Made by a program: the position numbers and the translations under genes
IMG/VR virus record: IMGVR_UViG_2531839104_000018
Length of the DNA: 4,278 nt
From: a virus
Taxonomy: Duplodnaviria > Heunggongvirae > Uroviricota > Caudoviricetes
Reading direction: 5' to 3' (one strand)
Shown: in pieces, positions 1-4,278 of the stretch
Numbering within the stretch: position 1 is the stretch's first letter
Layout: each line of letters opens with the position of its first letter
The notes under the pieces: model-generated
The model's database searches: none
Told to the model about the DNA's origin: nothing
What the model saw: the letters and a program-made list of their open reading frames with translations, nothing else

Positions 1-92
1 CCCCGTAACAGCAGTACCGCACACAGCAGCGCTATCATGATCGGTCGCCAGAAGCGGTTCAGACTTTCGGCAAATCGTAGCGACATAACCAT
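1..92 (-). CDS. Probable spanin (Rz-like inner-membrane subunit), 5' end only; runs off the left edge
   Basis: A minus-strand frame opens after a TGA at 95-93, with in-frame ATGs at 92, 86 and 38. Translation is MVMSLRFAESLNRFWRPIMIALLCAVLLLRG, i.e. Arg-rich N-terminus followed by a hydrophobic stretch, as expected for an N-in signal-anchor protein. It overlaps the 3' end of the endolysin gene, as lysis genes often do. True start is ambiguous and only about 30 codons are visible. Confidence 0.35.
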   Translation of the reverse strand, partial: MVMSLRFAESLNRFWRPIMIALLCAVLLLR

Positions 93-559
93 TCATCCGC
101 CGAACGGCGGGCCTCAAGGCCGGGGAGCTTCACCCCCTTTGAATAAATCCAGCGGATATACTGCTTACAGGACGCGGGCATCTGCCCGGCATTGATCAGG
201 CGCAGAAGCGTGGAGTTGCGAAAGTTCGTTTCACCGGCCCAGAAGATCCACGAAGCCAGCGCCACCGTCTGACCACGGGTAAGCGGCACCTGAACACGCC
301 GATCAATGGCCGCAAAGGCCCATTTCATGTCCTTTTCCAGTAGTTCCAGGCATTCTTCATCCGTCAGGGTCATACCCGGTTTCACATCCGGGCCGGTATG
401 GCCGTAACAGATGGTGGGTGTACCGGTGGGATCGATATACGTGGAGTTTTCTTTCCCTTCCCAGTAACCGGTGTAATGCGTGGCAATCGTGAACGTCCCG
501 GCACCGGCCAGAACAAGGGCAATCAGCTTTTTACGCAGTGGTGCGGGGAGTTTTGGCAT
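59..559 (-). CDS. Endolysin, T4-lysozyme-like muramidase (GH24) with N-terminal SAR (signal-anchor-release) domain
   Basis: 166-aa ORF with ATG at 559. Catalytic spacing matches T4 lysozyme E11/D20/T26: E-x8-D-x5-T inside WEGKENSTYIDPTGTPT. N-terminus KKLIALVLAGAGTFTIATHY is a Gly/Ala-rich weakly hydrophobic segment typical of SAR endolysins (P21 R, P1 Lyz, Mu Lys). Motifs CYGHTGPD and AAIDRRVQVPLT resemble Mu-type endolysins as I recall them. Confidence 0.85.
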   Translation of the reverse strand: MPKLPAPLRKKLIALVLAGAGTFTIATHYTGYWEGKENSTYIDPTGTPTICYGHTGPDVKPGMTLTDEECLELLEKDMKWAFAAIDRRVQVPLTRGQTVALASWIFWAGETNFRNSTLLRLINAGQMPASCKQYIRWIYSKGVKLPGLEARRSADEWLCRYDLPKV

Positions 560-560
560 T

Positions 561-598
561 GTTACGCTGTCTCATGATGTTCTCTGAGTCAGCGTAAC
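561..598 (-). promoter_or_regulatory. Dyad symmetry / potential RNA stem-loop abutting the endolysin start codon
   Basis: Perfect 9-bp inverted repeat gttacgctg (561-569) / cagcgtaac (590-598), extendable to 14-bp arms with one mismatch (ctca/tgag) around a 10-nt loop. On the mRNA the 3' arm ends 1 nt before the endolysin AUG, and no clear Shine-Dalgarno is visible. Could be a translational control hairpin or an activator binding site. Confidence 0.4.
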
Positions 599-630
599 GG
601 TGAAGGAAAGGCGGCAGGCTTTGCGGAATA

Positions 631-1056
631 TCAGAAAAGTGGCGGTTGTGTTCTTGCCAGATGCAGACGGCGCTGTTCACGTATGACGGTATAAATCTGG
701 GTTTCTGACATCCGGTAATGGCGGCGAAGGGATTCAATTTTCTCGCCCCGGTCCCAGCGCGAAAATATCTCATTGTTTCGCAGCTCGGCAAAGAGAGATT
801 CCCCGACCGGCAGGTAATAACCCCGTCCGCCCATATAGGCTGCCTGAGCCGCAGCCACCTTGCGTGCCAGTTTGCCGGCCAGTACCGGCTCAATCCCCTG
901 ACGCTGAAGTTCTGCGCCGGTGACTTCAACCAGTTCTGACAGGGTCCGCGGCCAGTTCTTTTTGAGAACATCATCAGGGATGTCATCAAGGCGGTCGATA
1001 AGGGCGTGCAGTTGCTCACTGTCACCACCAAACATGCTCATCTGAGTTTCTGCCAT
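631..1056 (-). CDS. Mor/C-family transcriptional activator (Mu middle/late gene activator family)
   Basis: 141-aa ORF, ATG at 1056 preceded by GGAGG 5-6 nt upstream. C-terminal half AYMGGRGYYLPVGESLFAELRNNEIFSRWDRGEKIESLRRHYRMSETQIYTVIREQRRL matches the recalled Mu Mor signature (GG..Y.P.G..L...R...I...F.G.N..EL...Y.....T.Y..IR..RRL) with a C-terminal HTH. It sits immediately upstream of the endolysin, as C does in Mu. Whether it is the Mor or the C equivalent cannot be decided from sequence alone. Confidence 0.75.
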   Translation of the reverse strand: MAETQMSMFGGDSEQLHALIDRLDDIPDDVLKKNWPRTLSELVEVTGAELQRQGIEPVLAGKLARKVAAAQAAYMGGRGYYLPVGESLFAELRNNEIFSRWDRGEKIESLRRHYRMSETQIYTVIREQRRLHLARTQPPLF

Positions 1057-1087
1057 ATCAGCCTCCGGTTCTCGCGTTCCCGGTAAG

Positions 1088-1121
1088 TTTAAAATAAAAA
1101 TCCCGCGTTGTGGCGGGATTT
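1088..1121 (-). terminator. Rho-independent terminator between the GemA-like gene and the Mor/C-like gene
   Basis: Minus-strand RNA reads AAAUCCCGC-CACAAC-GCGGGAUUU followed by UUAUUUU. This is a perfect 9-bp GC-rich stem (plus strand 1098-1106 / 1113-1121), 6-nt loop and U-rich tail, starting 5 nt after the GemA-like stop codon. Confidence 0.7.
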
Positions 1122-1125
1122 GGGG

Positions 1126-1635
1126 TTAACGGGGAAGTGATTTTTCATACTGCCTGCAAACGGCGTCATACCCCATCAGCGTGCGTTCGGGCATTCCCAT
1201 CGCGGCCAGCATTTTGCGGCGGTGCCATCGCTTGAGACGCTCCAGCACATCTGAGGCCAGGGCGGGGTGTTGCTCCAGCCACTGCCAGTTTGCCACACCT
1301 TCGCCGCCGTTTTGCGCGGCCGTCTGCGATTTCACCCAGCGGTTAAGGGCGGTTTCCGCACCATCAGAGATAAAGCCCTGCCGGTGCATCACCTTCCAGA
1401 TGGCGCGAATTTTAGCGGTCACCGTACCCGGTTTTAAGGCCCGGTTAACCGGGTTCTGACGCACTTTAAAACCGCGTTTTTTGAAAACATCCAGCACGCG
1501 GGATAACTCATCCGGTGACATATCCCGGCAGCTGGTTTTGCCGGTGACCGCCAGTAGTACGGATGTGTAGGTTTCATCATCCAGGGCAAGCTCGCGTTTT
1601 GCCACATGAATGGCAGATATCAGTTTCCCTCTCAT
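1126..1635 (-). CDS. gemA: GemA-like protein (Mu gp16 family, formerly DUF1018)
   Basis: 169-aa ORF. N-terminus LISAIHVAKRELALDDETYTSVLLAVTGKTSCRDMSPDELSRVLDVFKKRGF matches the recalled GemA signature (IHIAK.QLGLDDDTYR.LL...GK.S...M...EL..V...L...GF). ATG at 1635 overlaps the upstream stop as ATGA. Position just upstream of the Mor/C-like gene matches Mu gene order. Assignment is from memory of the family, not from a search. Confidence 0.65.
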   Translation of the reverse strand: MRGKLISAIHVAKRELALDDETYTSVLLAVTGKTSCRDMSPDELSRVLDVFKKRGFKVRQNPVNRALKPGTVTAKIRAIWKVMHRQGFISDGAETALNRWVKSQTAAQNGGEGVANWQWLEQHPALASDVLERLKRWHRRKMLAAMGMPERTLMGYDAVCRQYEKSLPR

Positions 1636-1928
1636 GCTGTATCAACACTCCTGCGGATATGATAGGTATTATTTTCCCGATCGAGCTGAACCCGATACTC
1701 CGGAGGAATCACAAAAATATTAAAACCATCATCAGTTTTTATTCTTGAGTAGCATTCCCCCTTATGATATCTGGCCAGTGCATTAATCAGAGAAGTCGCA
1801 GCCTGCCCAATCAGGTATTTTTTATGAAAAATACTGATAACTTTCCGGCACAGCCATCGTGTAATGACGAATGCACCGAAAAAGGATGTGATATATAAAT
1901 ACCAGAACAACTGCGAACTACTGTCCAT
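1632..1928 (-). CDS. Hypothetical small membrane protein (98 aa), in the low-GC block
   Basis: ATG at 1928 with strong SD AAGGAGA 7 nt upstream. Predicted N-terminal transmembrane helix FWYLYITSFFGAFVITRWL. Stop overlaps the GemA-like start (ATGA). Local GC about 40 percent versus about 60 percent in flanking genes. Confidence 0.5.
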   Translation of the reverse strand: MDSSSQLFWYLYITSFFGAFVITRWLCRKVISIFHKKYLIGQAATSLINALARYHKGECYSRIKTDDGFNIFVIPPEYRVQLDRENNTYHIRRSVDTA

Positions 1929-2115
1929 TATCTTTCTCCTTATTCAGTCTTCTGCGGCATTCGGCACAGTCATCAGGGCTTTCAAATGTATCCGGCTCGC
2001 GATTATGAGCCAGATATAACCACCGTCCACATATACTGATATTTTCGCCTGTTTTAAAAAAATGATGCTTCCTGGCCATTAGTGGCCGCGCCCATCCAGC
2101 GGGTAGACTATTCAT
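1918..2115 (-). CDS. Hypothetical small Cys/His-containing protein (65 aa)
   Basis: ATG at 2115 with strong SD GGAGGA 8 nt upstream. Contains C29, H37 and a C50-x2-C53 pair (ICGRW...DDCAECRRR), which might form a small zinc-binding fold. Overlaps both neighbours by a few codons. Confidence 0.45.
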   Translation of the reverse strand: MNSLPAGWARPLMARKHHFFKTGENISICGRWLYLAHNREPDTFESPDDCAECRRRLNKEKDNGQ

Positions 2116-2443
2116 TTGCTTTATCCTCCATGCTGGACAGAATCATATGTATTAATGTCGGGCGTGGAGATATACGCATTTCATTAAGCGTCTGAAGGGC
2201 AGCAACAGCTGCCTGTTTATCGGTGCCTTTGGCAATTTCAGCAAGAGAATGCACAATCCATAATGGGCTTAACGCTACGGCTGAATGCAGAATCATGTCA
2301 TCCATAATAATTTCTGGCATATCCCGTTTGTCACATTCTTTATCCATAAAAGAAACGATTTTTTCTGCATCTTCCGGTTTCATGCCTCCGGCGATGAGAA
2401 TTTTACGATATTCATAAGACGATCTTAATTCAATACTCATCAT
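2108..2443 (-). CDS. Hypothetical protein (111 aa)
   Basis: ATG at 2443 (second ATG at 2440) preceded by AGGTGA. No recognisable motif. Lies in the low-GC block (about 37-42 percent GC). Confidence 0.5.
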   Translation of the reverse strand: MMSIELRSSYEYRKILIAGGMKPEDAEKIVSFMDKECDKRDMPEIIMDDMILHSAVALSPLWIVHSLAEIAKGTDKQAAVAALQTLNEMRISPRPTLIHMILSSMEDKANE

Positions 2444-2455
2444 TCACCTGCCTGT

Positions 2456-2848
2456 TTAATCAGTTTCCAGTGCTTTGCTACGGGCAACAGCCTCACACTC
2501 AAAAAATACCGACTCCGGCACACGCTCCTTTAATTCACGAACAAGAAAATCATTAACGAGTTCATGACGTCTTATATTTCTTTCCTTTTCCTCCTGGCGC
2601 AATACAGCAAGGCGGTATTCAACAGTCCGGCGTTGTTTCTGAAAGACAGCCAGTGCTTTTCTGGCAGAGTTACGCAATGTATCATCGCCACAGGGTTCGT
2701 ATTCAAGCTGAAATTTAATCTCTTCAATGGTTTCTTTTATTTTTGCCAGCAAGCTAAGACAGTCGCTGATTGTCTTCAGTTTTTCATTATCAATATAACT
2801 TCTCACGCATTCACCTCCCGTCATTCCGGTAAAGCTGAAATATGGCAC
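2456..2848 (-). CDS. Hypothetical charged, probably helical protein (130 aa from GTG 2848, or 122 aa from ATG 2824)
   Basis: GTG at 2848 is preceded by AGGTGA 7 nt upstream. Alternative ATG at 2824 forms an ATGA overlap with the upstream stop. Translation is rich in K/E/R runs (KETIEEIKFQLEYE, LRQEEKERNIRRHE), suggesting helical or coiled-coil character. Confidence 0.5.
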   Translation of the reverse strand: MPYFSFTGMTGGECVRSYIDNEKLKTISDCLSLLAKIKETIEEIKFQLEYEPCGDDTLRNSARKALAVFQKQRRTVEYRLAVLRQEEKERNIRRHELVNDFLVRELKERVPESVFFECEAVARSKALETD

Positions 2849-3132
2849 CAGTGCGTCACCTGTCCGTCCTCATCTTCAAGGCAGGCTCCGGTTTCTTCAT
2901 CAATAAAAAAGCCTTCATACCCCATATGGCCGATGCGCAGTTCCTGTTGGTCACCATACTGAACAATCAGCACGACAGCCTCCATATCAGGCGGGAAAGC
3001 ATCATTCAGTGAATGCCAGGGATAACCGCGCAAATCCCCGAAATAAACACCGGTCAGCGTTCCGCCACAGACCGGCATTCCGACGGCACACACAAGGGGT
3101 TCATCTGATTCAACAAATAATGTCGTTATCAT
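2821..3132 (-). CDS. Hypothetical highly acidic small protein (103 aa)
   Basis: ATG at 3132 overlaps the upstream stop as ATGA. By direct count the translation has 18 Asp+Glu against 2 Arg and no Lys, including the cluster FIDEETGACLEDEDGQ. Net charge is about -16. Confidence 0.55.
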   Translation of the reverse strand: MITTLFVESDEPLVCAVGMPVCGGTLTGVYFGDLRGYPWHSLNDAFPPDMEAVVLIVQYGDQQELRIGHMGYEGFFIDEETGACLEDEDGQVTHWCHISALPE

Positions 3133-3680
3133 GGCATTAATTCCCGTAATACAACATCTTCGGCAGTCCGACGACGGTGATAAATAAAACTCACCGTGCC
3201 CTCGGATAATTCAAATTTCTCGCCGATTTCCCTAAAGGTAAGACGCCGTGGTGATTCAGCATCCCGTAATTCACGAATAAGACGAACATCATCGTCAGGT
3301 ATGCGGGTGAAGGGCAGCAACTCTCCGTATTTTTTCATGCTTACGCCAATATATCGCGCCCGATTGTGGACAGAATCCCGGTCTCGCCCCAGATATTCTC
3401 CTATTTGCTTACCGGTCATTGTTCTGGCATTTTTTCGGATAAATTTATCTTCATCAGGTTTAAATCTGAGGCGTTTGCATTTGAGCAACTCCGGGTAAGT
3501 ACCGCGTAATAAAACAATCCGGTTATGTACACCCCAGAAACTTCTTTTTATCCTGACAGCAATATCCTTAACCGGGGTGGATGGATAAAGCGCAATCAGC
3601 AGCGCATCTTCTTCAGGTGTCCATGCGCGAACATGAGCGGGTGCACGGCCTTTTCTCCCCATGGGTTGTAATATCATCAT
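3129..3680 (-). CDS. Putative DNA-binding protein with tandem Myb/SANT-like HTH repeats (183 aa)
   Basis: ATG at 3680 preceded by GGGGGTGA. Two internal repeats align: WTPEEDALLIALYPSTPVKDIAVRIKRSFWGVHNRIVLL and FKPDEDKFIRKNARTMTGKQIGEYLGRDRDSVHNRARYI, sharing [WF]xP[ED]ED, a central K[DQ]I[AG] and VHNR. A third HTH-like segment is LTFREIGEKFELSEGTVSFIYHRRR. The W-x-PEED pattern resembles Myb/SANT repeats. Confidence 0.55.
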   Translation of the reverse strand: MMILQPMGRKGRAPAHVRAWTPEEDALLIALYPSTPVKDIAVRIKRSFWGVHNRIVLLRGTYPELLKCKRLRFKPDEDKFIRKNARTMTGKQIGEYLGRDRDSVHNRARYIGVSMKKYGELLPFTRIPDDDVRLIRELRDAESPRRLTFREIGEKFELSEGTVSFIYHRRRTAEDVVLRELMP

Positions 3681-3683
3681 GCA

Positions 3684-4028
3684 TCACCCCCTGACTCGCT
3701 TTTCAGCAGCATAAAACTCATCAGACAGAATTTCGGTCATTTTCTGATTTGCGGGTTTTACGCCGCACTCAAGGTAAATCACATCGTCAACGCAGAACCA
3801 CTTCACAGGGCCAAACATGATTGCCGAGAAATCAATACCCAGCCAGAACAACAGTGCATCGGTTCTGGCATACGTGACGGGCGAATATTCACGCCACAGA
3901 CTGTTAAGTTCGTCAGAGGCAACGCGCAGGGCTTTGGGAATACGTGATGTGCGCGGTGTGCAGCTCCAGCCATTCGACGCAGTCGGTTTTCGCCATAAGT
4001 CGCGATGAAAAGGATATTTGTCATCCAT
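3684..4028 (-). CDS. Hypothetical protein (114 aa); its 5' end and RBS lie inside the left arm of the inverted repeat
   Basis: ATG at 4028 with AAGGG about 12 nt upstream. Stop at 3684-3686 lies 3 nt upstream of the next gene start. No recognisable motif. First 24 codons (MDDKYPFHRDLWRKPTASNGWSCT) are exactly duplicated on the plus strand at 4206-4278. Confidence 0.5.
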   Translation of the reverse strand: MDDKYPFHRDLWRKPTASNGWSCTPRTSRIPKALRVASDELNSLWREYSPVTYARTDALLFWLGIDFSAIMFGPVKWFCVDDVIYLECGVKPANQKMTEILSDEFYAAEKRVRG

Positions 4029-4049
4029 AAAGCGCAGCCCTTTAAAACA
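3956..4049. repeat. Left arm of a perfect inverted repeat (at least 94 bp)
   Basis: Checked base by base: position p pairs with 8234-p for every p from 3956 to 4049. First mismatch is 4050 vs 4184. The outer limit is unknown because the partner of 3955 lies beyond the window end. Confidence 0.9.
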
Positions 4050-4184
4050 TCAAACCCTTCCGCGCTGGCCGCGTGGCAAAAATATCAGCAGGACTGCCAG
4101 AAAGTTAAGGATGAGGCAAAACGCCTTGAGGCCGTGCTGAATGTTGCGTGCCGGTCGGTATTTGTATCCGGTATCAGTGGCTTT

Positions 4185-4278
4185 TGTTTTAAAGGGCTGC
4201 GCTTTATGGATGACAAATATCCTTTTCATCGCGACTTATGGCGAAAACCGACTGCGTCGAATGGCTGGAGCTGCACAC
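4185..4278. repeat. Right arm of the inverted repeat; truncated by window end
   Basis: Exact reverse complement of 3956-4049. Arms are separated by a 135-bp non-palindromic core (4050-4184) that has no ORF in the six-frame track. Confidence 0.9.
4206..4278 (+). CDS. 5' end of a plus-strand gene whose first 24 codons mirror those of the 114-aa minus-strand gene; partial
   Basis: ATG at 4206 followed by codons for MDDKYPFHRDLWRKPTASNGWSCT, identical to the N-terminus of ORF 3684-4028, with the same RBS region because both lie inside the repeat. Whether the downstream sequence continues to match is not visible. Confidence 0.4.
   Translation, partial: MDDKYPFHRDLWRKPTASNGWSCT

Follow-up and report, generated by a model that had tools for sequence, protein, structure and literature searches.

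Genes e, soc, 49 and I-TevI of phage T4 are carried on long early RNAs in which a helix hides the ribosome-binding site (RBS) and lowers translation about 100-fold. Their late promoters lie within the 5' strand of the helix, giving transcripts that lack this strand, and for gene e the purpose of the arrangement is to avoid premature lysis (PMC3014915). In phage Mu, the C-dependent late promoters require an element between -52 and -34 and a -10 hexamer, and have no -35 element (PMC2582627). Here we describe a locus in a Mu-like prophage that appears to combine the two principles. It is the 71-nucleotide (nt) gap between a Mor/C-family activator gene and a signal-arrest-release (SAR) endolysin gene, referred to here as lys, in a 4,278-nt stretch of viral DNA (IMG/VR record IMGVR_UViG_2531839104_000018, Caudoviricetes), the whole of which we call the window. 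The gap contains an inverted repeat, or dyad, that ends one nucleotide before the lys start codon. We consider it probable that this dyad is the imprint of an RNA hairpin that serves as a translational insulator of the T4 gene e type, specific to RNA that reads through from upstream.

All long open reading frames (ORFs) of the window lie on the minus strand, and ranges given from high to low are read along it. The dyad consists of three parts, which are followed by A560 and the ATG of lys (559-557):

585..598, minus strand: left (5') hairpin arm GTTACGCTGACTCA (598-585); 0 of 13 paired positions vary; predicted only in read-through RNA
575..584, minus strand: loop GAGAACATCA (584-575); one natural variant, T577C
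561..574, minus strand: right (3') hairpin arm TGAGACAGCGTAAC (574-561); covers the weak GAG Shine-Dalgarno (SD) sequence (573-571) and ends 1 nt before the AUG; 0 of 13 paired positions vary

Thirteen of the 14 arm positions are complementary, nine of them in a perfect 9-bp core; A589 and A570 form the sole mismatch, and the loop measures 10 nt. This geometry agrees with the initial annotation of the sequence, which had described a 9-bp perfect dyad (14 bp with one mismatch) reaching to within one nucleotide of the AUG; the 71-nt gap reported there is likewise the distance from the activator stop codon (633-631) to the ATG. A dyad with at least 13 of 14 matches and a loop of 3-20 nt is present a single time in the window, and 60 dinucleotide shuffles produced none; the analytic expectation is 0.012 per window. 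Folding of the 5' untranslated region, which the initial annotation had proposed as a check, yields a stable hairpin: a 101-nt RNA reaches -21.6 kcal/mol (z = -3.2), a stability matched by none of 200 shuffles. When the 55 annotated gene starts of the prophage are ordered by how well the upstream segment pairs with the RBS, lys comes first, at -19.6 kcal/mol compared with a mean of -6.2 kcal/mol (z = -4.4). Rfam covariance models gave zero matches at E <= 1 in positions 400-1200 on either strand.

The RBS covered by the right arm is weak. The best match to the anti-SD sequence of 16S rRNA before lys is the 3-nt GAG, located 10 nt before the AUG with a pairing energy of -2.7 kcal/mol, which bears out the earlier remark that no clear SD is present. 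An out-of-frame AUG also lies upstream, at 575-573 on the minus strand, and the GAGA before it is better spaced than the SD of lys itself. It opens a 14-codon ORF (MRQRNNAKTPRTTA, 575-531, minus strand) that overlaps the lys start; this ORF could affect lys initiation in the late mRNA, or it could have no meaning.

The left arm (GTTACGCTG) is predicted to hold the -10 hexamer, TACGCT at 596-591, of an activator-dependent late lys promoter with the following layout:

614..635, minus strand: predicted activator-binding box CTGATATTCCGCAAAGCCTGCC, at about -51 to -30; overlaps the activator stop codon; 1 of 22 positions varies
599..613, minus strand: promoter spacer without a recognisable -35 element; variable, at 9 of 15 positions
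591..596, minus strand: predicted -10 hexamer TACGCT (TAnnnT), inside the left arm; offset from the box as in the PI-like promoter of the same prophage and colinear with TAGACT of Mu Plys
583..585, minus strand: predicted late transcription start, 6-8 nt past the -10, where left arm and loop meet; placed from the position of the -10

Several comparisons support this layout. The PI-like promoter, situated before the head-protease gene, reads CTGAAATCCCGCAAAACCCGCC, 16 nt, TATGCTG, and the lys gap reads CTGATATTCCGCAAAGCCTGCC, 16 nt, TACGCTG; sites with a full-scoring box, 16 nt and TAyGCTG are just these two in 43 kb. The -10/start region is colinear with that of Mu Plys (TAGACTGCCATCAGAGAA in Mu, TACGCTGAC-TCAGAGAA in the window). 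A prophage of Citrobacter braakii with a 66% identical activator can be aligned gaplessly all the way from box to start codon; GTTACTCT there takes the place of GTTACGCT in the window, and in both there are 31 nt between the -10 and the start codon. We further aligned 18 late promoters, comprising 14 lys promoters of different lineages (Mu Plys included), the PI-like promoter of this prophage, and Mu PI, PP and Pmom. Anchored solely on the assigned -10, they share the gapless motif taCCg.AAtCCC at -44 to -33, and the interval from AAtCCC to the -10 is fixed at 20 nt in all 18. The window box holds CCGCAAAGCC in the columns of Mu CCATAATCCC, within this consensus.

Natural variation follows the same pattern. 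Across ten variants of the E. coli lineage, changes occur at 9 of 15 spacer positions, 1 of 22 box positions and 0 of 26 stem positions, and those inside the dyad are limited to the internal mismatch and the loop, a distribution that fits a box-spacer-(-10) layout. A scan with the sigma-70 consensus found no full promoter at the lys -10. The +1 of Mu Plys was deduced from the uniform 67-nt promoter features of the Mu GenBank record, which span -53 to +14; measured with this ruler, it is the A of GCCATCA. The strand opposite the right arm also reads TACGCT; an antisense promoter using it was set aside, as direct reading revealed no box upstream on that strand.

Other sites in the prophage resemble this promoter to varying degrees. 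In the PI-like promoter (L001 20994-21046, same prophage in strain 97-3250), the -10 TATGCT sits 6 nt before the annotated head-protease ATG, and the late head-protease mRNA would therefore be leaderless or nearly so; the Mu PI leader is about 26 nt. A weaker, third box-like sequence, CTGAATTAACGCAAAATGGCGT, is followed 15 nt on by TATGAT (L004 13816-13860, same prophage) in front of a DUF6645 gene located downstream of the invertase, and may be a further activator-dependent promoter serving an accessory, moron-like gene. A search upstream of com/mom revealed no convincing box before com.

The overlap of promoter and dyad has a direct consequence for the transcripts. Because a -10 hexamer is never part of the transcript that starts from it, the late lys mRNA would lack the 9-bp core of the left arm. 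The activator, in turn, must be made first, and a terminator scan of positions 1-1700 found none between its gene and lys, so a read-through RNA containing both arms would be expected; we infer both its existence and its amount. The hairpin stem is followed by AAUGCCAAAACUCC and no U-tract, and is thus not of the Rho-independent terminator type. In folding predictions, the hairpin is kept with 80-200 nt of upstream context. Opening the RBS (577-545) costs 16.4-17.1 kcal/mol in the read-through RNA as opposed to 5.9-6.4 kcal/mol in RNAs starting at 587-583, a difference of about 10.5 kcal/mol. In standard thermodynamic models of initiation, such a difference would correspond to roughly a hundred-fold effect. 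The predicted late mRNA leader is 25 nt long, A-rich and nearly unstructured. From these models we infer an effect of the hairpin on lys translation.

These properties suggest the following sequence of events. The endolysin gene would have its own late promoter, dependent on the adjacent C-like activator, with a box at 635-614, no -35 element and a -10 at 596-591; the -10 hexamer and the bases up to the start (~585-583) would double as the 5' arm of the hairpin. RNA from upstream, made first for the activator, would run unterminated into lys with both arms, and the hairpin (~-20 kcal/mol), which ends 1 nt from the AUG, would hide the weak SD and prevent early endolysin synthesis. SAR endolysins are exported by the Sec system without a holin, and early silencing would matter for this reason. 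As the activator builds up, RNA polymerase would start inside the dyad and produce late mRNA that lacks the left arm and is translated. The initial annotation had suggested that endolysin translation is structurally gated. The gating itself is retained here, but not in every lys mRNA, since the left-arm core overlaps the lys -10 and cannot be part of the gene's own late transcript; the structure is predicted for read-through RNA only. The start site likely lies inside the dyad and not downstream of it, which recasts the role of the hairpin rather than abolishing it. Processing by RNase III was set aside, a 14-bp interrupted helix being short for a substrate of this enzyme.

The locus resembles T4 gene e in two respects: a lysis enzyme gene is carried on longer early RNAs with an intramolecular helix over its SD and AUG (RNAs and helix are both predicted here), and its own late promoter lies inside the 5' strand of that helix (here the predicted -10 at 596-591 within the arm 598-585). 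It differs in that initiation would use sigma-70 and a Mor/C activator with an upstream box, in place of the gp55-dependent TATAAATA late promoter of T4, and in that the -10 hexamer would itself be the anti-RBS element. The phage is moreover a temperate transposable one, unrelated to T4, with a SAR endolysin and a mechanism deduced from sequence alone. With Mu Plys, the locus shares the position after a C-like activator gene and before lys, the element at -52 to -34, a weak -10, the lack of a -35 and a short leader (PMC2582627). Mu, however, has a predicted terminator directly after C, where the window phage has none, and only a 7-bp pairing of GCCATCA (-6 to +1) with TGATGGC (start codon; p = 0.13), compared with 13 bp in the window hairpin. 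A further hairpin that covers a start region in a Mu-type phage is that of mom, likewise a dangerous late gene. The mom hairpin inhibits translation within the functional mRNA and is opened by Com, as is also stated in the Mu annotation, whereas here the promoter position would drop one arm and no trans-acting factor would be needed. A Com-like binding site next to the window hairpin was not noted, though no search was aimed at one.

In the papers that it covered, our literature search found no lys-leader hairpin or read-through masking described for Mu or Mu-like phages, an absence that is not proof; an insulator of the T4 gene e type has apparently not been described in this group before. 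If correct, the mechanism would account for the way in which a Mu-like phage that has one activator and lacks a terminator before lys keeps its holin-independent SAR endolysin from being made too early, and the promoter's own -10 would act as an anti-RBS element with no extra factor. It would extend a mechanism of lytic T4-type phages to temperate transposable phages that use sigma-70 and Mor/C activators, and a weaker version may be present in Mu Plys, which has long been studied as a model promoter. For annotators and engineers, endolysin expression would then depend on the position of the transcription start and not on the RBS alone.

To assess the arrangement across lineages, we gathered loci by an exhaustive HMMER search, alignment-based scans (5-sequence alignment) and single-protein contig look-up. 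The comparison set comprises 14 distinct lineages, the window included, in which an activator gene is followed by a SAR lysozyme gene. In all 14, RNA that contains the -10/pre-start segment pairs this segment with the SD or start codon at -6 to -20 kcal/mol, whereas the predicted late RNA is nearly unstructured (-0.7 to -5.7 kcal/mol). The 13 lineages besides the window thus pair their own -10/start region with their own RBS, and do so by different sequences, as the following arms illustrate:

E. coli: GUUACGCUG with CAGCGUAAC
Citrobacter: GUUACUC with GAGUGAC; a G-C to U-A swap and one U-G pair
Edwardsiella: UAUCC(U)GUUCG with CGAACGGAUA
Kluyvera: CUUAUCC with GGAUAAG
Apirhabdus: CGGUUUA with UAAACCG
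L064: UUUAUC and AGUCGA with UCGACU and GAUAAA
L089: UCUGUCGUUA with UAACGGACAGA
Mu: GCCAUCA with UGAUGGC

The G-C to U-A change in Citrobacter is compensatory at one stem pair. Shuffling within each lineage gave p-values from 0.0005 to 0.40, which combine by Fisher's method to 2e-9, or to 6e-7 when the window is omitted and 10 groups are used. Pairing is better between two arms of one lineage than between arms exchanged across lineages (mean rank 3.1 of 14, permutation p = 5e-5). Taken over the lineages, folding favours the sense over the antisense strand (Wilcoxon p = 0.009), as expected of an RNA helix that uses G-U pairs. The proteins P0076 (79% identity) and P0082 (72% identity) were rejected as intermediates: both proved to be noisy copies, with frameshifts, from the same E. 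coli lineage, their dyad is identical, and the stepwise covariation in the window helix sought through them was absent. We hold a broader proposal more tentatively, as possible though short of probable: that in enterobacterial Mu-like phages, and weakly in Mu, the lys -10/start region is an anti-RBS element co-evolving with the lys SD and start codon, so that promoter and initiation sequences constrain each other, with the strength of the insulator possibly traded against a post-activator terminator.

The last part of this proposal concerns the signals that flank the activator gene. The terminator scan identified a single site in the window lineage, upstream of that gene:

1098..1121, minus strand: intrinsic terminator downstream of gp16/GemA and ahead of the activator gene; sole terminator-like site of positions 1-1700

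In Citrobacter, Mu and Aeromonas relatives, a clear terminator directly follows the activator gene, and in many other relatives a G+C-rich palindrome is found at this place. Both are missing from the window lineage, whose gap is the shortest (71 nt vs 99-126 nt) and whose hairpin is by far the strongest, a contrast that suggests a trade-off between a post-activator terminator and hairpin strength, with the window lineage as its sole example. The palindrome is imperfect and lies 10-50 nt past the activator stop, before the promoter box, in L007, L011, L012, L014, L064, L077 and others (for example CAACCGGCTGCGCTCGAGAGCGCGGGTTG). Most copies have no U-tract, and this conserved element could act as a terminator or bind a protein. 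In the terminator at 1098-1121, the left arm (AAATCCCGC) is identical to the 9-mer core of the PI-like box, a placement that recalls Mu Pm, where a predicted terminator after mor lies inside the annotated Mor-dependent promoter. As a promoter box for the activator gene this 9-mer was rejected, since the register of its nearest TAnnnT (TAAACT) is off by 5 nt from that of the late promoters.

Several observations weigh against a read-through-specific insulator. The lys start site is a prediction, and the Mu +1 is deduced from annotation layout. Five of the 14 lineages are individually non-significant (Mu with p = 0.13, four others with p = 0.23-0.40), and the combined p-values are optimistic because the lineages share ancestry. 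As the hairpin is invariant in the E. coli lineage, there is no covariation within this exact helix, and conservation of both arms would be expected in any case, from their roles as -10 and RBS. The sense strand of the window folds no better than the antisense strand (-20.1 vs -21.0 kcal/mol), so folding energies in this lineage cannot separate an RNA role from a DNA role. Several relatives combine a terminator-like hairpin after the activator gene with an RBS hairpin, and the view that the hairpin replaces a missing terminator consequently draws on one lineage. The non-significant lineages also speak for a dyad without any selected function, a by-product of local inverted duplication or of chance complementarity between -10 and SD; hexamers of the TATCCT type are inherently complementary to GGA-type SD sequences (TATCCT against AGGATA). 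We regard such an origin as very unlikely in view of the chance expectation of 0.012 per window, the first rank of lys among 55 starts, the p = 5e-5 of the same- versus cross-lineage arm test, and a stem with 0 variable positions next to a spacer that is free to vary.

The equal folding of both strands in the window would suit a DNA operator, at which a dimeric activator or repressor occupies both arms across the -10/start region and controls Plys. Mor/C proteins do bind imperfect dyads (PMC2582627), and covering the -10 and +1 is typical of operators. The arms are nevertheless unlike the activator box, which lies elsewhere (635-614), and the PI-like promoter has a box without a dyad; these facts lead us to abandon the idea, raised in the initial annotation, that the dyad is the site of the adjacent Mor/C activator. 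The argument made there against a standard -43.5 site, an imperfect dyad of about 16-19 bp that a phage's late promoters have in common, holds, the window dyad spanning 38 bp at about -14 to +24. In relatives, moreover, the right arm always follows the SD or start codon, with loops of 6-23 nt and differing arm sequences; several helices need G-U pairs, the sense strand is favoured across lineages (p = 0.009), and the perfect cores are about 29 bp apart from centre to centre, which is awkward for a small dimer. We judge an operator to be quite unlikely. A hairpin in the 5' untranslated region of every lys mRNA, gating translation until a factor, temperature or a ribosome-coupled event opens it, is unlikely rather than far-fetched: the structure is stable and occludes the RBS, the SD is weak, and the prophage encodes elsewhere a protein of the Com family, whose Mu member opens the hairpin that inhibits mom. 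Such a leader needs a start upstream of 598, but no TAnnnT lies between the box and the dyad, and the box-to--10 spacing, constant in 18 promoters, sets the -10 inside the left arm; an internal promoter also removes the need for an opening factor. The hairpin might instead serve the 3' end of the activator mRNA as a stabiliser, pause site or weak non-canonical terminator, with occlusion of the lys RBS incidental. This would be in line with the strongest hairpin of all lineages occurring where the post-activator hairpin or terminator of Citrobacter, Mu and others is missing and the gap is 71 instead of 99-126 nt. It is as improbable, in our view, as a dyad without function: there is no U-tract and the terminator scan is blank at the stem, a 3' stabiliser need not adjoin the AUG or overlap the -10, and relatives that have a terminator still pair their -10/start region with the RBS.

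Returning to the gene context of the proposed insulator, the order in the window is gp16/GemA, terminator, a single C-like activator, the 71-nt gap and the SAR endolysin. The genes are:

1635-1126, minus strand: gp16/GemA (PF06252)
631..1056, minus strand: Mor/C-family activator, 141 aa, C-like (PF08765, E = 2.8e-32)
59..559, minus strand: SAR-type endolysin (phage lysozyme), 166 aa, the proposed target of regulation (PF00959, E = 6.3e-37)

The matches to PF08765 and PF00959 confirm the earlier assignment of a Mor/C-like gene and an endolysin gene on either side of the gap. The activator is 39% identical to Mu C (E = 4e-35) and 27% identical to Mu Mor; it is the only Mor/C-family member annotated in the prophage, which has no separate Mor gene. 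The endolysin is 39% identical over its full length to Mu gp22, an annotated SAR endolysin. In two Erwinia tracheiphila-type prophages (L012 ~3020-3110 and L085), the SAR endolysin has an N-terminal (PKS)n repeat made of about seven tandem copies of CCCAAAAGC, which is not present in the close relatives L070 and L084.

DNA searches identified the window as part of a Mu-like prophage common in E. coli of the enterohaemorrhagic (EHEC) type. Matches occur in 231 of 5,426 complete genomes, at 100% identity in some of them, and also in regions of Stx phage records annotated as 'inserted Bacteriophage Mu-like phage'. At its far end, the window has a perfect 94-nt inverted repeat at 3956-4049 and 4185-4278 that reaches the last base. 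In comparison with a complete genome, positions 1-4049 are colinear and positions 4040-4278 match the same region in the opposite orientation; the repeat is almost certainly a foldback junction at the contig end, an assembly artefact.

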